DNA of 64,000 nt, taken from Candidatus Latescibacterota bacterium (lineage in GTDB: Bacteria > Latescibacterota > UBA2968 > UBA8231). Positions within the stretch are counted from its first letter, which is position 1. The number at the start of each line of letters is the position of its first letter. Below the pieces are notes generated by a model. It was not told the DNA's origin, ran no database searches, and saw nothing but the letters and a program-made list of their open reading frames with translations. Of the stretch, positions 2,913 through 11,767 are shown one piece after another. The DNA is taken from contig OZ241867.1 of assembly GCA_965203175.1 (NCBI GenBank), forward strand, positions 800,001-864,000, given 5' to 3'. A program made the position numbers and the translations under genes.

Positions 2913-5900
2913 TCACCGTTCGTATTCATTCAGATCTGTGCGAATAGCGTAACTTTTTTCAAGACACATCTGATCTATCAGATCAAGGCATTTAGCTGCC
3001 CATTCATCACTTTGATGTTGGTGGTATGTTCGTAAAATCAACTTTGACACCATCGGAACATCACCTGCCCGACTCGTACGCATATCATTCGCCTCTTCGA
3101 TAAACCGTTCGAGAAATTTTTTACATACAATATACGTAATGCCAGGTAATCGGTAAGAAGATTCCTCAAGAAGGTGAAGTAAGGAAAACGAGTTTTCTTG
3201 ATAGGCTGCACTATCGCAAAACTTGACTATCAGATTCTCGTAGAATTCTAGAGGTTGTTTTTCCAAATTTCGGAAGCACTCTGCAGCTTTTCGACGAACC
3301 TCAATATCATCGTCATCAAAAAACAGCAGAAGTTTTTGCCCTGACCATTGCCGGTACTCCTCTTGGCCGATGTTGGCAGATGCCACTTGAGCCACCCCTA
3401 CTCTCTGTGACGAGTTGCCACGGAGTGCTTCTTCCACAAGATCCTCGGCATCGTCGCGCTGAAGGAGCAAAGCAATGCTCACCAATCGAGCACCTCCCTC
3501 ACTTGCTTCAGGAAGATTTGATCGAAGCATTCTCTCTATGACGGTTCTAAGGTCTTCGAAGTGCTCGTGCAGGCCGTAACGAATAAAATGCCCTATGTAT
3601 GGGGTTGTCAGTAAACGGTCGTCGCTATGTTGGTTGTCCCGAGATTCGATGAGACTGAGAAACTGCCTTAAAGCAAATCTCGATTCCTGACCGAGAATAG
3701 CTAAAAGAATAGAACTTGTACAAGCCCGAACGGCCAAACTGTTGTCGTTGACCAACTGGTCAATAGTAGGACGAAAGCGATCGATGTATGATCTATTTCG
3801 TTGTATAAGATTACGAATGGCCTCAGCAGCGTGGCCACGTGTTGTATTGATACCATGTGTAAGAATATCACCTCCTCCGCTCGTGGCTTCTTCACTCCAC
3901 AACTCTTTATCCGGATCCGAATTGGTTGCCAGCCAGTCGAGCATCTGCACAGCATCATCGGGAAGTGGTTCTTCAATTAATCCCAATAGGTCTGTAATCG
4001 CTTTCCCACAACTATCGCGGTATTCATTATACGCCTTGCGACACACTTCTAATTTGAGTTCGATAGAGCACTCTGTCTCTTTCAGACCATTGAGGGTATG
4101 CTCTATGTAGGAGGGATGGGTACCCAACGGAAATCTAAGGCTCAAGCGGGCAAATCTTTCCGGCTCTTGCTTCACGAACTCCTGTAACATCTGGGCAAGC
4201 TCCGGCGCTCCACCCTTTTCAGGATTCTCCCAAAGGTATTTTCTCTCTTCTGAATCATATTCTTGGATTGCTCTTAGCCATTGCTCATCTGTCATTCTCT
4301 CTGCGGCTATCTTTTCAATTGGGGAGCCTACTTGATACACTTCTAATCTTCGCGGAGAGGAATCTGGTGATCTAAATTTTCGTTCAAGTTCCATATAACG
4401 GCTCTGAGCATTCCTGCTCCTCAATTCAACTGGAATGCTAGACAGTAGATTAAAACAGGCATGTCCTCTCCGCTTGTACCCTTCAGGAGTGCGCTCCCAA
4501 GGTGAGATGTAATCCAGAATAGCCTTTTCGAGCTTTGTACAGTTCTCACCGGAACAAAGCGGAGTAGCTGCTTCTATTAATTGCATCGCTATCCAATAAG
4601 GGTTATCGGAGTATCCGCATTGAAATCGCCAAGTCTTGTCGCATAGGTCGGACACAGCTTCATTGGCAAAGTGCTTAGCACCTACTGTATAAGCACGAAG
4701 CAGGAGAAAATTTGCTAGATAGGTATCACGGCTACGTAGCTCTGCAAGAATCTTGCCAATACTATCTGACCTAGTCTCGGCTAGCTTCTCTACTGCTATA
4801 GCGGCTACATCCCTGCATGTTCCACGGATTGAAACACTTTCGCCGTTAATCAAGTGCCCCCAAACAGCATCCCGCTTGGGGACGGTGGAATTTTCCCTAT
4901 AGACGGCTTCATCAGCAATTTTTAGAATTACAGGTAGGACATGCTGTGCAAACTCTTCAGGAGCCTTGATTGCAGAGTCGTGTATAAGTTTTGGTCCAAA
5001 ACCGTCATGGTTGAACAGATCATTCCAGTTAGGTTCACCTGTACCATCCTGAGCCGCTCGAATAACGGAAAGACATCTTTGTAGCCAATGAGCAGTTACT
5101 TCGACAATCCAATCAGGACGTGTCTTATCGAGTCCATACATCATGCTCCAAAACGTGCTATTGACTGCGATCGGTCCAACTGCATTGTCCAAAGTTCCAT
5201 CGTCAATCAGATTCAAAAATAAATCAAAGAACCTTCGACTATTTTCAAGAGTAGCCCATTGCATAACGTAACTTAACCGCTGAGGCCATTCGCCTCCTTT
5301 TCCTACGAATGGCTCAAGGAGTTCAGCGACTCTGTCCCCTGAGTGTTCCTGATGAAATCGAGTATAGTTCACTCCCATGTTGACTAGACCGTTGTTCTCG
5401 GATGTAAGCCAATCTACAATCAGACCTTTTTCATCCGTAATCTGAAACCAATTCTGAGACATATGAAAACGGTTCCAAACCAAAGACGCGAATTTGTCTG
5501 TATTTGGTCTGTTGCTCTTAATTGCCTCAAGTTCAGATTCGATCCATGGTGAAATTACGTTCCATTCACCTTCTTCTGGATTAGGCATCGAAAAGGCGAG
5601 AGCAATGGCAAGGTCCTTCAAATGGTACCTAATCCTTTCGTCTCTCAATAATCCACTGAGTTCTCTACAATACCACCCTCGATCAGCATCACTAAGATAA
5701 ACGAGGACTTGCCGCACCTGTGCTCTGCGAAATAGATGTTGTTCTGATGGCACAAGGAATGACACCAATGAATCTCCCCTTGCCATGAAGGCGCGGGCGA
5801 AGCAGTAATCGAAAAAAGTCTCATGGCCGAATCCATAACTCCTTCCATCAAACGAAAGCACTCCCTCTGACGCCATCTGGACAAGACAATCATTCGGGAA

Positions 5901-7460
5901 CTGGTCTAGTTTCTCTTTCGGAACTGAAAGCCGTTGGGATTCAGTCATTGCGTCGCACAAAACCTGGATTATGTTGGCCCAATTATCAGAGGAGAAAGCA
6001 GTGCGCTCATTGACTGCATTGCGTTTCTCATCCCAGTAAAGATCAAACAGGTCCTTTTCCGAGAAGAACTCAGGCTGTGAATCGGAGTTATAATTGGCGT
6101 CAAGGAACAGCGACAGATTCTGAGGAAGGCATAGCAATTCTAATTGCTTTGCATCAAACAGATCAGTGTTGAAGCTACCACCCCCAAGCGAGGATTTCAC
6201 CTCGTCCAAAGAGAAGTCCGTGACTGAGATTTTGGCGTCAACCTTAGCGAGAAGGCGACGCAAACGATGATCGTTCTCCCAATCAAATTCTCTACAAACA
6301 ACCACTATATGTAATTTTACTCTTTCACGTAAACCTCGTACCTCTTTCAAAAGGTCTTCCACGACATCAAAGAAGTCTGAACTGCGGCCAGAAGTCGTAC
6401 TAACGGCATCAAGCTGGTCAATAATGAGCACCGCTTCACCTGATGTGGCTTTAGCTGCTGCCTCCAATACTAGGGCTGGCGATTCCTCTAATTCAAGACT
6501 TTCCCCCAACTTTTTAGTGGACGATACCGGGTCTATTCTATCTAATCGAAAAGCGAGTACCGCAACAGGATCATTGCTTTGATGAAGAGCCTCCACGCAT
6601 TCGATGACACACCCGGTCTTTCCACCACCTGCCTTGCCGGTTACAACGCAGTCGCTGCCTCTAGGGACAGGGCCTTTGATCTTTTCAAGAAGCTCCTTAG
6701 TCGATGAACGAGGAATGAGGGAGTCTTGAATCAGCCTTCGTTTTGTGCTGTCAAGATAGCGACCTGTTGCTTCAGAGATAAGCGAGAGGGCATCACTTGG
6801 TCTGGTAAGTCGCCGCAATGAGAAGCCCTTGTCCGAAAGGTATGAAATCAGATCATCCCAGTTGATGCACTTATGAATTGAGTCTTCAGCAAAATTACGG
6901 AGAAAGTCACAGACTTCCGGACTACTAAGAAACCGCGCTTGCAGCAACTCTCGCACTTTATCTTCAAGCTCTCGTTCATCGATTGTGCTGACCTCTATGC
7001 GATGAAGTAATTTATATGCCGTGGCTGTGTCAGTTTCCCAAATACCTTTGAGTCTTTCGAGGGCTTCCTTTTGAGTCTGAGCATCAACAAACACTGACTC
7101 AAATTCCTTCTGATTCTTTGAATCAATAGCCCGCTCCGTTAGCACTTTTAGCTCTGGAGCGTCACTACCTGAAGCAAAAACGAATCGTGTGTTTTCGCTT
7201 GCAGAAAGCTGCTCAAACATCACCTGTAGTATGCTCCGAAGATCAGATAGATTCCACTTGCCTTCTGGATGACTGCGCTTTGCCTGATGTAGCTCTCGAC
7301 AGTCTCCTACAGCGACCACAAATTCGGCTTTATCGAAATTCGGATCCTCAATTCGTATACTGTCGGCCTCTTTATCGATAATCCGTACTAACTGACGGAT
7401 CGTCCACCACGATTCGTAGCGATTTCCCAGCTTGTTAGCGGGACCACCAGGCAACGGCAC
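2913..7460 (-). CDS. Avs/NACHT-like STAND NTPase with N-terminal PD-(D/E)XK-like nuclease and long C-terminal helical sensor region (putative antiphage protein)
   Basis: N-terminal GNRYE...E..D..EF...HQAK (restriction-endonuclease-like QxK); Walker A GKAGGGKT; Walker B VLIIDQLDAVS; LLCLPQNLSLF and FGHETFFDY post-NTPase motifs; ~900-aa helical C-terminus; AT-richer than flanking genes. Confidence 0.75.
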   Translation of the reverse strand: MPLPGGPANKLGNRYESWWTIRQLVRIIDKEADSIRIEDPNFDKAEFVVAVGDCRELHQAKRSHPEGKWNLSDLRSILQVMFEQLSASENTRFVFASGSDAPELKVLTERAIDSKNQKEFESVFVDAQTQKEALERLKGIWETDTATAYKLLHRIEVSTIDERELEDKVRELLQARFLSSPEVCDFLRNFAEDSIHKCINWDDLISYLSDKGFSLRRLTRPSDALSLISEATGRYLDSTKRRLIQDSLIPRSSTKELLEKIKGPVPRGSDCVVTGKAGGGKTGCVIECVEALHQSNDPVAVLAFRLDRIDPVSSTKKLGESLELEESPALVLEAAAKATSGEAVLIIDQLDAVSTTSGRSSDFFDVVEDLLKEVRGLRERVKLHIVVVCREFDWENDHRLRRLLAKVDAKISVTDFSLDEVKSSLGGGSFNTDLFDAKQLELLCLPQNLSLFLDANYNSDSQPEFFSEKDLFDLYWDEKRNAVNERTAFSSDNWANIIQVLCDAMTESQRLSVPKEKLDQFPNDCLVQMASEGVLSFDGRSYGFGHETFFDYCFARAFMARGDSLVSFLVPSEQHLFRRAQVRQVLVYLSDADRGWYCRELSGLLRDERIRYHLKDLAIALAFSMPNPEEGEWNVISPWIESELEAIKSNRPNTDKFASLVWNRFHMSQNWFQITDEKGLIVDWLTSENNGLVNMGVNYTRFHQEHSGDRVAELLEPFVGKGGEWPQRLSYVMQWATLENSRRFFDLFLNLIDDGTLDNAVGPIAVNSTFWSMMYGLDKTRPDWIVEVTAHWLQRCLSVIRAAQDGTGEPNWNDLFNHDGFGPKLIHDSAIKAPEEFAQHVLPVILKIADEAVYRENSTVPKRDAVWGHLINGESVSIRGTCRDVAAIAVEKLAETRSDSIGKILAELRSRDTYLANFLLLRAYTVGAKHFANEAVSDLCDKTWRFQCGYSDNPYWIAMQLIEAATPLCSGENCTKLEKAILDYISPWERTPEGYKRRGHACFNLLSSIPVELRSRNAQSRYMELERKFRSPDSSPRRLEVYQVGSPIEKIAAERMTDEQWLRAIQEYDSEERKYLWENPEKGGAPELAQMLQEFVKQEPERFARLSLRFPLGTHPSYIEHTLNGLKETECSIELKLEVCRKAYNEYRDSCGKAITDLLGLIEEPLPDDAVQMLDWLATNSDPDKELWSEEATSGGGDILTHGINTTRGHAAEAIRNLIQRNRSYIDRFRPTIDQLVNDNSLAVRACTSSILLAILGQESRFALRQFLSLIESRDNQHSDDRLLTTPYIGHFIRYGLHEHFEDLRTVIERMLRSNLPEASEGGARLVSIALLLQRDDAEDLVEEALRGNSSQRVGVAQVASANIGQEEYRQWSGQKLLLFFDDDDIEVRRKAAECFRNLEKQPLEFYENLIVKFCDSAAYQENSFSLLHLLEESSYRLPGITYIVCKKFLERFIEEANDMRTSRAGDVPMVSKLILRTYHQHQSDEWAAKCLDLIDQMCLEKSYAIRTDLNEYER

Positions 7461-7527
7461 GGCTATTTCCTCCCTCGAATATCAGAGTGACAAAATTCCA
7501 CAGCATCAATTGATAACAGACGAAAGA

Positions 7528-7605
7528 CAAGTACGACCAGTCCAATTGTCGCCACAGTGTAGAGACAATCTCCCCATCCGAGAAACGGCCGGCAAAACGG
7601 ATCAT
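7528..7605 (-). pseudogene. DUF1016/YhcG N-terminal fragment containing imperfect palindrome P1 (7545-7569)
   Basis: Reads MIRFAGRFSDGEIVSTLWRQLDWSYL, resembling the DUF1016 M..FA..F.D..IV.TLS.QLSWSH segment. Confidence 0.65.
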
Positions 7606-7648
7606 CTACTTGTCCGTTTCTGACTTTCTTTGCAGTCGCACAACCGCC

Positions 7649-7893
7649 TCACGGGACGCGACAATCCGCACGAACTTGGGCTACTGCTTCGTCAACAAGG
7701 GCTTGGGCTTCCTCAGCCGAGAGGTGTTTGTTGCGTTCCCAAATGGAGTCAACGGTCTCCCAAAAGATCGCTTGGCGGACCGCACGGACGACGAAACGCG
7801 ATAGGTCGCCCCTTTTCCCACCCGTTCGGGCCAAATAGCTCCGAACGGTGCGGTCCCCGTATCTTCCGAGACGACGATGCTCCAACGGGTCAT
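7649..7893 (-). pseudogene. Ribbon-helix-helix protein (XACb0070-like antitoxin family), frameshifted
   Basis: MTRWSIVVSEDT (ATG 7893) continues as DRTVRSYLARTGGKRGDLSRFV...EEAQALVDEAVAQVR in another frame; shift at the G4 run (cccc 7855-7858); span is 245 nt = 3n+2. Confidence 0.75.
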
Positions 7894-7943
7894 CAATAGC
7901 CTCTCTTCGAGTTTTGCAGTCAAGTACGGCCAGCCCAATTGTC
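7865..7943. repeat. 79-bp direct repeat, copy 1 (RHH 5' end, upstream spacer and palindrome arm)
   Basis: 6 mismatches versus 8163-8241. Confidence 0.9.
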
Positions 7944-8073
7944 GCGACACTGTCGCGACAATATCAGCTTCGCGGAATGCCTTGGCAAAATTTATCATCC
8001 GAGTGAGAGCCGAATAGCTGTAACCTCGCCCAAATTAGGCAGTCAATTGTTGCGACAGTGTCGCAACAATCTC
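7921..8073 (-). pseudogene. DUF1016/YhcG N-terminal fragment with in-frame stop; contains palindromes P2 (7938-7962) and P3 (8046-8070)
   Basis: EIVATLSQQLTA*FGRGYSYSALTRMINFAKAFREADIVATVSRQLGWPYL; TAA at 8035-8037. Confidence 0.8.
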
Positions 8074-8154
8074 AGTTCTGGAACAGCCTGTTCCAGAATT
8101 TCTGCGACAGGCTGTCGCAGAAATTCAAAATGGCAACAGCTTGTTGCCATTTTG
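8046..8154. repeat. Array of four adjacent or overlapping perfect palindromes (P3-P6)
   Basis: attgttgcgaca-g-tgtcgcaacaat (8046-8070); ttctggaacag-c-ctgttccagaa (8076-8098); gaatttctgcgacag-g-ctgtcgcagaaattc (8096-8126); caaaatggcaaca-gct-tgttgccattttg (8126-8154). Confidence 0.95.
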
Positions 8155-8162
8155 CGTTCACC

Positions 8163-8241
8163 TCCGAGACGACGATGCTCCAGCGGGTCATCAATAGCTT
8201 CTCTTCAAGTTTTGCAATCAAGTACGACCAGCGCAATTGTC
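8163..8241. repeat. 79-bp direct repeat, copy 2 (truncated second RHH start)
   Basis: Matches 7865-7943; encodes MTRWSIVVSE on the minus strand, then runs into palindrome P6. Confidence 0.9.
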
Positions 8242-8537
8242 TCCACAGTGTAGAGACTCTCCCAACTCTCCCCGCTCGGATCCGCAGCAAGATGTGCGAC
8301 AACATCCATACCTTCAACAGCGCGTCGTACCTGATTAAAATCGGCAATATCGCACAGGATGAATTTCTCGTCTGGAATTTCGAGCGTCCATGACCCCGGA
8401 ACGCGAACAGATGGCTCCAATTTGTAGTCGAGTGCATACGCATCGTACTTTTCCGGTTGTTCTTTCAGCCGTTTGTATGTCATGTAACCAATCTGCCCAG
8501 TAGCGCCTGTAACAAGCACCCTCTTAGGTGTAACCAT
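8205..8537 (-). pseudogene. NAD-dependent epimerase/dehydratase (extended SDR), 3'-truncated
   Basis: VLVTGATGQIG Rossmann motif, CDIAD, DVVAHLAA; similarity ends at WESL (~8255), where imperfect palindrome P7 (8236-8258) begins; only 110 aa, no YxxxK. Confidence 0.75.
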
Positions 8538-8584
8538 ACGTTTATTTTTCTTTCGTTTATGGGTGTTCCTCCATTACAACGTGC

Positions 8585-9877
8585 CTATTTCCTGCGTCCC
8601 CCATTAAAAGCATCTGGCTTCTCGGTACCCGAAGGCCAGTACCCACTCGGATCCTCGCCCCACGGCGTCCCACAAACTTCCGTCAAAACCCGCCACTCAG
8701 ACGCGCCCATAACCTCTGGATGAAAGACAAAGCGCTTGAGTCCAGCCGCCTCAGACGCCCGCAAGATGCCGAGCAAATCGCGCGCGGGCATGGGATCACC
8801 CGCGTGCGGCGTGCGACCAGTCGAGACCCAGCAAATCACCTTATCGACACCAGCCGCCTCTATGGCCCTGCGCGTTTCCCCGTACACGACCTCGCTGAAA
8901 AACTCGTCGGGAAAGCCCGCCTCCAAGTCAAAAAGTGTCCGCACCTGCGGTAGCTTGATGCCAAAAAGCGCCTGCACCACGGCAAAAGCGTCTTCTTCCG
9001 TTAGCCCCGGATTCCACTCCCCAATTGTCTCCACCCAGCGCGCCACTGTGCCATAAAGTCCGTCGAACCCGCGATGCCAGTAGTAGTGCTTGGGCAGTAT
9101 ATAATCAAAGTATCCGGCCATCCGCTCATAGTCCTGCCCGGTCAACCCAGAAAAGACAGCCGTGCGCGGAATCCCACCCAACTCGATCTTGCGCGAGGCC
9201 TGATCGACTATTGCGCGAGCGTCTTCCCAAGAGCGGCGCGACTTCTCCTGCCGCATCCGCAACCAATACAACCCATCCTCGTCGAGGTCGATCAAATTCA
9301 ACACCGAAAACAGGCCACCTTGGGCGAGGTAGCGCACCCGCTGGGGCGTCAGCCGACACAGGGCCTGCTGCAGATGGTCAATACCCCGCTGCATCCGCCC
9401 GACATCGGCCCCCATGCCAGCAAAAAGCTGATCTTCGCCGGGCCGAAGTTCCAGCAACTCCCCGCCGTGGTGGAACGCCAGCTCGTAGTGGTTTTCGCCG
9501 GGGCCGTCGACAATGACGCCGTGGACCTGCGGATAGAACGCGATCAAATCCTCCAGCCCAACCAGCCCACCGCGCCCCATCCCAAAGGTCATAATCTGCC
9601 AGCCACGCGCCGCTGCATCGTCCATCATGCCTTGGAGCTTTTTCTCTTTTTCTAGATCGCGGGGCGTATCCTCCGGCGGCTCGACGCCGTGCTCGGCGTA
9701 GAGCTTGGTATTGACCGGATAGCTGGAGATCAACGAACCATCGTCCTGCTTAAACTGCATGCGGCCGACGATAATGCCCTCGACGCCGCCTTCTTCCCAA
9801 GCGTCGAAGCGCTGTTGGTAGCCTTCGAGCCAGTGTTCGAGCGGCTGGTCGCTGTGGGTGAAAACCCAAAATTTCAT
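8585..9877 (-). CDS. Hypothetical protein (430 aa), possibly TIM-barrel
   Basis: Long ORF with GGAGG RBS and genome-typical codon use; no family recognised. Confidence 0.7.
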   Translation of the reverse strand: MKFWVFTHSDQPLEHWLEGYQQRFDAWEEGGVEGIIVGRMQFKQDDGSLISSYPVNTKLYAEHGVEPPEDTPRDLEKEKKLQGMMDDAAARGWQIMTFGMGRGGLVGLEDLIAFYPQVHGVIVDGPGENHYELAFHHGGELLELRPGEDQLFAGMGADVGRMQRGIDHLQQALCRLTPQRVRYLAQGGLFSVLNLIDLDEDGLYWLRMRQEKSRRSWEDARAIVDQASRKIELGGIPRTAVFSGLTGQDYERMAGYFDYILPKHYYWHRGFDGLYGTVARWVETIGEWNPGLTEEDAFAVVQALFGIKLPQVRTLFDLEAGFPDEFFSEVVYGETRRAIEAAGVDKVICWVSTGRTPHAGDPMPARDLLGILRASEAAGLKRFVFHPEVMGASEWRVLTEVCGTPWGEDPSGYWPSGTEKPDAFNGGRRK

Positions 9878-9887
9878 AATGGCCTCC

Positions 9888-10721
9888 TTAGCGGTCTGGC
9901 CACTTGTAGGCGGTCTTGCTGTTTTGCCAGAAGTACTTCTCGGTCACGCCCTTTTCGCCAAAGTACGCTTTGACAATGGAGATGGCGGCCTTGAAACTCC
10001 CCGCTCGGTCGCTAACGGGCCAATTGCTGCCATAGATCACGCGGTCTGAGCCAAAGGCGTCCCACATGGCGTCGAGGATCGGGCGATAAAAGTCCAGCTC
10101 TTCCGGCACCGGCTCCACCCTGCTTTGCTCCATGATCGCCGAGACCTTCATAAAGACCTGCGGCTGCTCGGCCGCTTGAGCTATGGCGTCCAACCACATC
10201 GGATCGGGATCGCCGCCATCGGCTCCGACCCCGCCGCAGTGATTGATGACAATGCGCAATTCGGGCAGCCGCCGGGCCAGTTCGACCACTTGAGCCAAGT
10301 CCGCCGGCCCCACCAGCGCGTCGAGCTCCAAGTCCCTTGCGACGAGGTGCTCCATGTCGGCGAGAAAAGACCCAGCCTCTAAGTCGGCAAAATACCCACC
10401 GCCGCAGCGAATGCCGCGAAAGAGTGCGTTTCCCGCTAGGCGGTCGATGTCGCTTTTGAAGTCCTCCCGATTGGGATCGACGTGGCCCACCAGCCCGACG
10501 ATCCAAGGGTCATCAGCGGCCAAATCCAGAATCCACTGATTGTCCGCCAACCACGCGCTGGCCTCCACCACCACCGTCCCGGTCACCCCTTCGGGCGCGG
10601 CGAGAGCGCGGTGGTGCTCGGGCAATACCGTGCGATAGAGCAACTCGTTGTCAGCCGGCGGCCAAGGCACGCCTTCCGGTCGCGTGGGATCGTAGAAGTG
10701 GGTATGAGTATCGATAATCAC
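9888..10721 (-). CDS. Amidohydrolase_2 family protein (sugar lactonase, L-fuconolactonase-like)
   Basis: IIDTHTH metal motif, VINHCG, YGSNWPV. Confidence 0.85.
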   Translation of the reverse strand: MIIDTHTHFYDPTRPEGVPWPPADNELLYRTVLPEHHRALAAPEGVTGTVVVEASAWLADNQWILDLAADDPWIVGLVGHVDPNREDFKSDIDRLAGNALFRGIRCGGGYFADLEAGSFLADMEHLVARDLELDALVGPADLAQVVELARRLPELRIVINHCGGVGADGGDPDPMWLDAIAQAAEQPQVFMKVSAIMEQSRVEPVPEELDFYRPILDAMWDAFGSDRVIYGSNWPVSDRAGSFKAAISIVKAYFGEKGVTEKYFWQNSKTAYKWPDR

Positions 10722-11767
10722 GATGCATTCCTTTCTGTCATGGTTTCTTCAATCAACGTCGCAAACGCCTCTATGTCCTCTGCCTCAGTGTCGAACGAGG
10801 TCATCCAGCGCACCTCGCCCCGTGTGGCATTCCAGGGATAAAAGAAAAACTCCTGCTGCAAAATGGGAATCACTTCCACCGGCAACCGCGCGAAGACAGC
10901 GTTGGCCTGCACTGGGTAGATCACCTCCACCCCGCGAATGGGCCGCACTCGCTCGGCCAGCACCTGCGCCATAGCGTTGGCGTGTTCGGCGCTCCTGCGC
11001 CAAAGGTCGTCGGTCAGCAGGGCCGTAAACTGCGCGGCGACAAAGCGCATCTTAGAGGCCAGTTGCATCCCCTGCTTGCGTGCACGGCGATAGTCCTCGG
11101 CTAGCTCGGGCTGAAAAAAGACCACAGCTTCCCCCAACATCAGGCCGTTCTTGGTGCCGCCAAACGACAGCACATCGACCCCACAATCCCCAGTAACCTC
11201 CCGCAGTTCCAAGCCCAAGCCCACGGCTGCATTGGCAATCCGCGCTCCATCGACGTGCAAATACAACCCGTGATCGTGGGCGCAGTCGGCGATGGCGCGA
11301 ATCTCACTCGGCGCATAAACAGTACCCAGTTCCGTAGCCTGAGTAATCGACACCACGCGGGGGCGCACTTGGTGCTCGTCACCGCGACCCGCAATGTGGG
11401 CAACGACTCCCTCGGGAGTGATTTTGCCGTCGGGTGCTGGCGCGGTCAGGAGCTTGACGCCGGCCACCTGTTCGGGAGCACCGCATTCGTCGATGTGGAG
11501 ATGAGCGGTGTCCGAGCAGATCACCGCGTCGCAAAAGCGCGTGAGCGCGGTGAGGGCCGTAACATTGGCTCCGGTGCCGTTGAAGGCCAAGAAAACCTCA
11601 ACCTCCGACCCCAACACCTCGCGAAAAAGCGCGACGGCTTCATCCGTGTGGGGATCGTCCCCATAGGAATGCACGTGCCCCACGTTGACTCGCTGTAAGG
11701 CCGCCATGACCTCGGGGTGGACTCCGGCGTGATTGTCGCTGCCAAAGCCGCGAATGCGCTCGCCCAT
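10718..11767 (-). CDS. ltaE: Low-specificity L-threonine aldolase
   Basis: FGSDNHAG, NGTGAN, LHVDGARIANA, SFGGTKNG (PLP lysine), GMQLASKMRF. Confidence 0.9.
   Translation of the reverse strand: MGERIRGFGSDNHAGVHPEVMAALQRVNVGHVHSYGDDPHTDEAVALFREVLGSEVEVFLAFNGTGANVTALTALTRFCDAVICSDTAHLHIDECGAPEQVAGVKLLTAPAPDGKITPEGVVAHIAGRGDEHQVRPRVVSITQATELGTVYAPSEIRAIADCAHDHGLYLHVDGARIANAAVGLGLELREVTGDCGVDVLSFGGTKNGLMLGEAVVFFQPELAEDYRRARKQGMQLASKMRFVAAQFTALLTDDLWRRSAEHANAMAQVLAERVRPIRGVEVIYPVQANAVFARLPVEVIPILQQEFFFYPWNATRGEVRWMTSFDTEAEDIEAFATLIEETMTERNAS

Follow-up and report, generated by a model that had tools for sequence, protein, structure and literature searches.

YhcG/DUF1016 proteins form a very widespread nuclease family of unknown function, whose genes ride in restriction and defence islands. 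Here we describe an array of palindromes left among broken YhcG genes in a 64,000-nt stretch of DNA from Candidatus Latescibacterota bacterium (GenBank assembly GCA_965203175.1, contig OZ241867.1, positions 800,001 to 864,000 of the forward strand). This whole stretch is called the window, and coordinates refer to it unless a genome position is named. The array comprises four different perfect palindromes, P3 to P6, packed into 109 bp.

Palindromic DNA inside or between genes has been described in several other systems. Rickettsia palindromic elements are dispersed mobile repeats of 100-150 bp that lie in frame in many unrelated genes. Palindromic DNA is likewise tolerated in frame in YhcG genes, but there the units are confined to one family and one site. 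Repetitive extragenic palindromes (REPs) and bacterial interspersed mosaic elements (BIMEs) resemble the array in being clustered extragenic palindromes that can form hairpins between genes. However, REPs occur as many copies of one imperfect consensus per genome, whereas four different perfect palindromes, derived from coding sequence, were found here once. We did not class the array with REPs or BIMEs: perfect palindromes of the YhcG type were present only in the window and at genome position 1399836. It was not an integron attC array either. Such arrays consist of imperfect 57-141-bp sites with extrahelical bases, together with cassettes and intI, whereas the present units are perfect palindromes of 23-31 bp that abut or overlap (intI was not searched for). 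A CRISPR array was also rejected, as the four units differ from each other and have no spacers.

Two further systems share more specific features with the array. According to the excerpts available of a study of Nematomorpha mitochondria (PMC6649704), perfect inverted repeats occur there in coding sequence and both arms encode protein, as in YhcG genes. The repeats described in those excerpts are many and long (up to 284 bp), and they lie in mitochondrial genes of a few species. By comparison, the YhcG palindrome is 17-41 nt long, occupies one site in one prokaryotic family and has covarying arms, and in the window it survives only as non-coding relics. At quasipalindromes that are hotspots of template switching, arms are likewise copied to become alike, several bases change at once, spacers are inverted and arms are extended (excerpts of PMC7202029, PMC8604942 and PMC5941160, and Ripley 1982 cited there). 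In those excerpts, however, the quasipalindromes are single hotspots or genome-wide non-coding statistics, whereas the YhcG palindrome sits at a fixed codon of a family and outlasts the death of the gene.

We propose that the array is a pile-up of relics of this coding palindrome, formed when two YhcG genes were destroyed by deletions and fusions that ended at palindromes. We give this reading a probability of roughly 60%.

The array and the genes it came from

The original prediction reported four hairpins with arms of 11-15 bp within 109 bp, a common centre of the form ACA-N1/3-TGT and a peptide for each unit. All of this was borne out. A repeat search and a separate scan of the window recovered the four palindromes at 100% self-complementarity, the centre was present in all four, and the quoted peptides were found in the translations. 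We also took a census of perfect palindromes (arms of at least 11 nt, loop of at most 5 nt) in the whole genome, a single contig of 6,579,469 bp labelled G000. Among the 72 palindromes found, 68 were solitary and the only cluster was P3-P6; those of the YhcG type lay at DUF1016 relics, in the window and at the genome position given above. A 129-nt stretch was predicted to fold into four separate hairpins. Its folding energy was -45.6 kcal/mol as DNA (z -11.2, with 0 of 200 shuffles as good) and -65.4 kcal/mol as minus-strand RNA (z -9.7). The array is real and far from chance.

Hairpins can also mislead an assembler, a possibility raised by the original prediction. Short-read contigs did break inside the array, at 8105/8112, 8148 and 8257. 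However, the same array was present in single contigs of separately assembled genomes of other species, namely G021 (96% over 214 nt), G022 and G012. In addition, contigs of run X2 matched 7300-8105 and 8112-8257 with 0 differences each, and a contig of run X18 bridged 8066-8257. Although no listed contig spans the whole array, we regard a hairpin-induced assembly artefact as scarcely credible.

The recognisable DUF1016 fragment that had been noticed at the array was also confirmed. On the minus strand, a DUF1016_N match at 7927-8076 covered profile positions 46-95 with 41.6 bits (cut-off 32.8). It included one TAA stop and spanned both P1 and P3, the palindromes that begin at 7938 and 8046. 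We defined a YhcG/DUF1016 gene as Pfam PF17761 and PF06250 in one open frame. In the window the N-domain was found, though only in part, and the C-terminal YhcG_C domain, a PD-(D/E)xK nuclease, was not. No YhcG_C (PF06250) match exceeded the cut-off anywhere in the genome, the best one having 12.2 bits and lying elsewhere in the genome. Because of this, and because of the stop inside the N-domain piece, the pieces in the window are relics and not a gene. DUF1016_N was represented in the genome by four broken pieces only, including two outside the window at genome positions 4124591 and 1399759. Since the N-domain pieces are broken and no YhcG_C exceeded the cut-off, the genome has no intact YhcG/DUF1016 gene.

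Intact genes were found in related species. Among 31 genomes of the genus, 17 had YhcG_C and 22 had DUF1016_N. In congeners, the syntenic position is occupied by one or two intact YhcG genes of 357-425 codons, in which the same palindromes lie in frame. The type 1 gene (G010, G002 and G013) encodes EIVATLSRQL twice, in YGKEIVATLSRQLV..FGTGFS and in PDREIVATLSRQLSWSHF, and both sites are encoded by palindromes of the P1/P3 kind. The type 2 gene (G014, G002, G011, G001 and G006) has two or three tandem palindromic units; in one example, VLAQAVQEIGNLEKD-AILRQAVAELENDRTEQAK-EFLQQLVAEIPWGHN, the perfect palindromes measure 27 and 41 nt. In G011, the intact gene of this type encodes FLEQAVPEL twice and carries the P4 unit in frame, and the P5 core is in frame in intact genes of G014, G002, G013 and G001. 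From these matches, P4 and P5 can be identified as type 2 units, and P3 and P1 as the two type 1 sites. In the type 1 N-domain relic, P3 encodes the first helix of the helix-turn-helix-like part, and P1 occupies the fixed palindrome site of the family. A search for the array units in the genes of relatives, as the original prediction had recommended, thus matched P4 and P5 in frame, but P6 came from the flank of a start codon. Further DUF1016_N matches in the genus were short, split or interrupted; 14 of these 20 had a perfect palindrome with an arm of at least 8 nt, although their ages are undated and some do not span the site.

The history of the array was reconstructed from blastn searches against the congeners' loci and from an alignment of the arrays. 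Homology to the flank of the intact type 2 gene reaches the ATG at 8150-8148 (minus strand) and ends at 8146-8148. The right arm of P6, read on the plus strand, holds the native ATG and the second codon of the dead type 2 gene. P6 is composed of this native start region, the usual type 2 core and, as its left arm, an inverted copy of the start region. By this comparison, P6 appears to be a palindrome that has grown into unique flanking sequence. At P3 the sequence changes to a type 1 fragment, which runs to P1. Ends of homology were located at 8256/8257, 8146-8148, 8126/8127, 8073-8076, 8044 and 7962; G012 has a further one in the middle of P4. Most junctions are therefore no more than 3 nt away from the edge of a palindrome, or coincide with the centre of one. 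Contigs of co-occurring strains show corresponding joints.

We suggest that the type 2 and type 1 genes were lost through deletions and fusions whose ends lay at palindromes. What remains on the minus strand would then be the type 2 start codon folded into the new P6, the units P5 and P4, and the type 1 fragment from P3 to P1. A 35-codon frame that runs from the type 2 ATG into P3 is a by-product of the deletion, and in it P5 and P4 retain the original reading frame of that ATG. Among the three explanations offered by the original prediction, scars of successive insertions came closest, the array being what two YhcG genes left behind after deletions and fusions that ended at palindromes; the scars, however, are those of deletion and not of insertion.

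Arrays of this kind were also found elsewhere. G021 has a copy of window 8044-8257 in one contig, downstream of an intact epimerase gene, and parts of the array are present in G022, G012, G014 and G003. The P3-P4-P5 module lies between a 430-codon gene and the start of the epimerase gene in G014, G021 and G012. In G022 and G003, a single array abuts the 430-codon gene and there is no epimerase gene.

The coding palindrome of the YhcG family

The original prediction had related the palindromes to the variable segment of DUF1016/YhcG. This relation was right and proved more general, as intact genes have a palindrome at a fixed codon. In the phylum, we sampled 151 genomes, of which 49 had a strong DUF1016_N match, and examined 36 genes. 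A perfect palindrome with an arm of at least 8 nt was present at nt 241-323 of the N-domain in 25 of the 36. The arm sequences were unrelated among the phylum's subfamilies, and the encoded peptides included EILYTLCREL, FVQQLAGQ, LQPLVGE, ANLSQPVRDL and IYYTACNKL. Intact genes had one to four palindromic units. The N-domain spanned 411-591 nt across the phylum, with the added length located at the palindrome site and holding extra palindromes.

A second sample covered 80 loci, with one genome per species, from Verrucomicrobia, Cyanobacteria, Acidobacteria, Deinococcus, Armatimonadota, Chlamydiae, Proteobacteria, Chloroflexi and methanogenic archaea. In 67 of them, a perfect palindrome with an arm of at least 7 nt was found at most 40 codons before the conserved PW(G/F/Y)HN motif (12 had none and 1 was unscored). 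When the arm had to reach at least 9 nt, 65 palindromes fell in that zone and 20 in the rest of the loci (160,546 nt), so that their density was 42-fold higher in the zone. In E. coli K-12, the yhcG gene carries a perfect palindrome of 33 nt (15-nt arms, AKIWQTLSAKSF) and a 15-nt palindrome in the same place. The symmetry axis is always located at the first base of one particular codon, the sixth before the conserved W. The window agrees with this pattern: P1 stands just before GWPYL, and P4 and P5 equal units that are in frame in congeners. We also observed two loci from other phyla with an extra palindrome of the YhcG type near or beyond the 3′ end of the gene, about 729 nt past the W codon in L089 and about 1100 nt past it in L138.

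We then examined whether the arms vary together, using an ungapped alignment of 37 columns that was anchored on the W codon instead of the palindrome. Paired cells amounted to 79.3%. Shuffled alignments gave 61.5%, none of 500 reaching the observed value, and sliding the partner left 29-43%. Changes on both sides were seen in 138 cells against 47.8 expected, and the covariation score was 0.421 against 0.162. Resampling of synonymous codons lowered the number of matching pairs from 9.28 to 5.55 of 13. Because the axis lies on a first codon base, second codon positions of one arm face wobble positions of the other. The wobble base of Val tracks the second base of the Ala or Gly codon opposite (G:C 45, C:G 16), and that of Gln tracks the Val or Ala opposite (A:U 44, G:C 13). 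By distance from the axis, positions 3-11 were paired in 53-68 of the 80 genes, position 2 in 48 and position 1 in 29. Judged from these alignments, the symmetry that is kept is that of DNA, with synonymous sites following the opposite arm.

Mismatches of the G:T type (35) and of the A:C type (31) were equally common, so there was no sign of the wobble tolerance expected for a hairpin in the sense-strand RNA. Selection on an RNA hairpin, for which G:U-type mismatches should exceed those of the A:C type, was thus unsupported. A search of eight loci, including the window region, against Rfam gave 0 matches at E ≤ 1.

By full-text literature searching, with supplements outside its scope, we found no published description of a palindrome inside YhcG genes. 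The excerpts available of PMC9881135, PMC4316617, PMC7967276 and PMC5941160 contain no description of it either. The statement in the original prediction that no named feature type covers the array holds as far as this searching shows.

The protein encoded around the palindrome offers one possible use for it. An AlphaFold model of a type 1 protein had a mean predicted local distance difference test (pLDDT) score of 69.7, with most of the N-domain at 75-91. In the model, a helix-turn-helix-like pair is followed by a short helix at residues 99-106, and the palindrome-encoded peptide is placed in this short helix. The stretch of residues 41-154 aligns to the DNA-binding domains of Noc, ParB and Spo0J, including complexes with DNA, at Z 9.0-10.2 and a root-mean-square deviation of about 3 Å over 94-103 residues, although a Z near 10 in helical folds may mirror a mere common arrangement. 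The C-domain of the model aligns to nucleases of the NucS/EndoMS type at Z of about 9. A sequence search of PDB with an alignment of 14 YhcG proteins found no relative, and a Foldseek search of the model against PDB found no match at E ≤ 0.001.

The predicted fold of the N-domain and the short palindromes bound by ParB and Noc proteins make YhcG comparable with the ParB-parS system and with Noc and its binding sites (NBS). One parS site lies inside the spo0J gene. However, parS and NBS are dispersed sites of conserved sequence, whereas YhcG palindromes vary in sequence between genes and were found only in or beside them. It is conceivable, though we think it rather improbable, that a ParB-like YhcG head would recognise the palindrome in the very stretch that encodes this head, and that site and protein would diversify together. 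If this were true, relic arrays would be fossil sets of recognition sites that record past YhcG specificities at the locus, and they might still attract incoming YhcG genes or nucleases.

A related proposal, made in the original prediction, is that the array consists of operator or decoy sites, the palindromes being bound or cleaved by the putative ParB-like head. The similarity of the model to Noc, ParB and Spo0J, whose kind binds palindromes of 16 bp, would fit this proposal, as would the position of the palindrome in the gene part that encodes the ParB-like domain and the extra copies beside the intact gene in G014. However, the genome has neither an intact N-domain nor an intact C-domain of YhcG and hence no resident user of such sites, and the four arms differ from one another. 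Among close homologues, the arms vary despite little change in the protein. In five genomes with intact genes, both palindrome types were confined to the genes of this locus and the adjacent array, and no dispersed sites were seen. As noted above, the Z values may also reflect a common helical arrangement. An array of operator or decoy sites is thus unsupported for this genome and, all told, slightly less plausible still, although such a role of the palindrome in intact genes elsewhere is possible.

Changes in the relic palindromes

The relic palindromes could be compared between species. The arms of P3 are identical in the arrays of G014, G021, G012 and G003, and the centre is either C or G. 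The centre of P4 is likewise flipped between C and G, and a 3-nt loop, AGC in two species, stands reverse-complemented as GCT in another one. Relative to the window, the second copy of P3 in G021 has two compensated arm pairs and a flipped centre, and the array of G012 shows an intermediate with one arm changed. Three forms of P6 were found. The window and G012 have the perfect form, G021 and G022 carry two mismatches side by side, and the contig of run X18 is doubly compensated, as A>T at 8129/8130 occurs there together with T>A at 8150/8151. The last type 2 unit in intact genes is comparable. G014 has a perfect A:T version and G001 a perfect G:C version, whereas G002 and G013 have hybrids; there, a Gln/Arg replacement either has its counterpart in a synonymous change of Val or still lacks it.

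The differences between arrays were mostly inside the palindromes. All eight differences from G021 in 214 nt lie in P3 or P6, as do four of four from G012 and two of three from G022. By comparison, the flank unit differs at 1-3 sites in 110 nt from G002, G013 and G014, and the epimerase part at 10 sites in 304 nt. Compensated arms, flipped loops and half-converted intermediates seem to be the signature of template switching during replication. They match the arm homogenisation, spacer inversion and clustered multi-base changes that excerpts of PMC8604942, PMC7202029 and PMC5941160 attribute to template switching at short inverted repeats. To judge from the comparison of species, the arrays therefore show the pattern of a quasipalindrome hotspot.

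The relic origin, the covarying palindrome of the family, the junctions at palindromes and the pattern of changes are shown by the comparisons above; the following mechanism, which may account for both the symmetry and the packing, is deduced from them. During replication, a hairpin would allow the nascent strand to use one arm as the template of the other. Such template switching would homogenise the arms, invert the loops and extend arms into the flank, as in P6. The same hairpins would make the sites liable to break and recombine, or would favour jumps of the template between different palindromes with a common core, and in this way four of them would have been packed into 109 bp. Because the genome encodes no YhcG protein, the perfection of the palindromes here is independent of it.

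The way in which the units differ also bears on another proposal of the original prediction, in which the array would store interchangeable coding cassettes for the variable DUF1016 helix; such a library would serve programmed diversification. Whichever strand is read, each unit does give a version of one and the same peptide, intact genes carry the varying numbers of units and lengths of N-domain given above, and in the excerpts available of PMC9881135 DUF1016 genes are enriched next to genes targeted by inversions. However, orthologous units differ by paired arm changes and loop flips, not by swaps of cassettes. P6 derives from a start-codon flank and is not a helix unit. The genome has no acceptor gene, with neither DUF1016_N nor YhcG_C in an intact gene, and no recombinase or reverse transcriptase turned up in the list of open reading frames at 5000-11500 or in nine frames scanned with Pfam. 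The cassette library is therefore unsupported, and we consider it very improbable.

A stronger competitor is that the YhcG-derived array has been exapted as a functional multi-hairpin in transcript or DNA and is now kept for its own sake; it would protect 3′ ends, or stop or pause transcription between neighbouring genes, in the manner of REPs and BIMEs. The hairpins are very stable on either strand, and among congeners the P3-P4-P5 module is 89-92% conserved (G014, G021 and G012) and the P4-P6 module 95-97% (G021, G022 and G012). The contig of run X18 that covers 8066-8257 is 230 nt long and comes from an RNA library, which is no proof of transcription, as carry-over of DNA is possible; the run data are assembled contigs, from which transcript starts, ends, strand and expression level are unreadable. 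On the other hand, the conservation of the modules is no higher than that of flanking DNA, and the module is placed differently or partly deleted among species. Interspecies differences are concentrated in the palindromes instead of avoiding them. Most stems have no U-tract after them, and a terminator scan flagged no site in the array. An intrinsic terminator was rejected on the same scan, which covered 7300-8700; the T-runs of P6 lie only within its own arms. We regard exaptation as unlikely, though less so than any other alternative considered here.

Several points weigh against the relic pile-up. Some relic palindromes are imperfect, namely those at 7545-7569 and 8239-8257 and that of the relic at genome position 4124591. 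Template switching was deduced from comparisons of sequences; gene conversion between palindromes at different loci could produce the same pattern, and selection for the hairpin could be another source of it. The eight of eight differences from G021 are only modestly significant, because palindromes fill about 59% of the 214 nt. In several congeners, modules of the array stand at two intergenic positions with 89-96% conservation, which fits an exapted role too. No single short-read contig of the examined runs covers the whole array. The modelled N-domain resembles the DNA-binding domain of ParB/Noc, whose proteins bind palindromes. Finally, a neutral process hardly explains a site kept at one codon through deep divergence, which suggests a function in intact genes. 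Still, we favour the relic pile-up, and the array most likely serves no purpose of its own in this genome, its palindromes being non-functional scars in a decayed, rearrangement-prone locus.

The decayed locus and its meaning

The features of the locus are collected in Table 1. The relic region, 7460-8257, sits between a gene for a NTPase of the STAND type and a truncated epimerase gene. The flank unit is itself an older N-domain relic that ends at an imperfect palindrome. A second copy of this unit ends at P1, and its first 54 nt run on into the leader of the ribbon-helix-helix (RHH) gene. The leader has these 54 nt in common with the repeat unit found ahead of the type 2 YhcG gene in congeners. 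In G014, the RHH gene lies directly downstream of the intact type 2 gene.

Table 1. Coordinates of palindromes, relics and neighbouring genes in the window.
Feature	Position	Strand	Description
STAND-type NTPase gene	2913-7460	minus	1515 codons; weak nSTAND and AAA matches, HEAT-like repeats
Weak third DUF1016_N relic	7528-7611	minus	profile positions 70-97, 13.4 bits; contains 7545-7569
Imperfect relative	7545-7569	-	10 of 12 pairs; inside the weak third DUF1016_N relic
RHH gene	7649-7885	minus	78 codons; Pfam RHH_6, 49 bits
Second flank-unit copy	7865-7962	minus	direct repeat of 8148-8257, 88%; ends at P1
P1	7938-7962	minus	perfect, 12-nt arms, 1-nt centre; encodes IVATVSRQL just before GWPYL
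35-codon frame	8043-8150	minus	type 2 ATG through P6, P5 and P4 to a stop in P3
P3	8046-8070	minus	perfect, 12-nt arms, 1-nt centre; encodes IVATLSQQL; type 1 N-domain relic
P4	8076-8098	minus	perfect, 11-nt arms, 1-nt centre; encodes LEQAVPEL; type 2 variable-segment unit
P5	8096-8126	minus	perfect, 15-nt arms, 1-nt centre; encodes EFLRQPVAEI; type 2 unit
P6	8126-8154	minus	perfect, 13-nt arms, 3-nt loop; holds the ATG of the dead type 2 gene
Flank unit	8148-8257	minus	5′ flank of type 2 YhcG gene; 97-99% identity to flanks in G002, G013 and G014
Imperfect relative	8239-8257	-	8 of 9 pairs; end of flank unit 8148-8257
Truncated NAD-dependent epimerase gene	8258-8537	minus	about 93 codons, compared with 291 in congeners

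The epimerase gene is cut at 8256/8257, the exact edge of the imperfect palindrome that ends the flank unit, and its 3′ part (about 570 nt in G014) has been lost. It is probably a pseudogene. Together with the STAND-type NTPase gene, the decayed YhcG locus looks like a variable region similar to a defence island.

Some further observations were made at this and related loci. In G014, direct copies (54-98 nt) of one unit, in its own right an older relic of DUF1016_N, stand on either side of the intact type 2 gene (L018, 3871-3924 and 5068-5165). The gene thus seems to be nested in what is left of another YhcG gene. After the stop of the STAND-type NTPase gene and before the next gene on the minus strand, the window has a perfect palindrome of 34 nt at 2843-2876, with 16-nt arms and a 2-nt centre. 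It reads FLQQLLEE on both strands, which is YhcG-like, but its axis falls between two bases; it could be a further relic or an ordinary hairpin at a transcript end. The second relic locus of the genome (L003, G000:C1:1399700-1400000) contains two tandem DUF1016_N fragments, QTLSVELAKRLPLAWSPYVTLLTIDNPEER and IGPTLSDQLASLASVVTLLTIDNPEERRFYEIE, and a perfect palindrome of 27 nt at 1399836-1399862, whose arms are different and compensated.

A palindrome kept at one codon across bacteria and archaea is a rare nucleic-acid constraint that overrides codon choice in a whole family. The value of the array lies in the evidence that it gives on how this unexplained coding palindrome of YhcG is kept up. 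The genome is a natural experiment: it has perfect palindromes without an intact YhcG gene, and when it is compared with sister species, these palindromes show paired changes, loop flips and the extension of an arm. Its relics point to template switching as the force that maintains the palindrome, and they mark the palindromes as breakpoints that drive the turnover of the locus.

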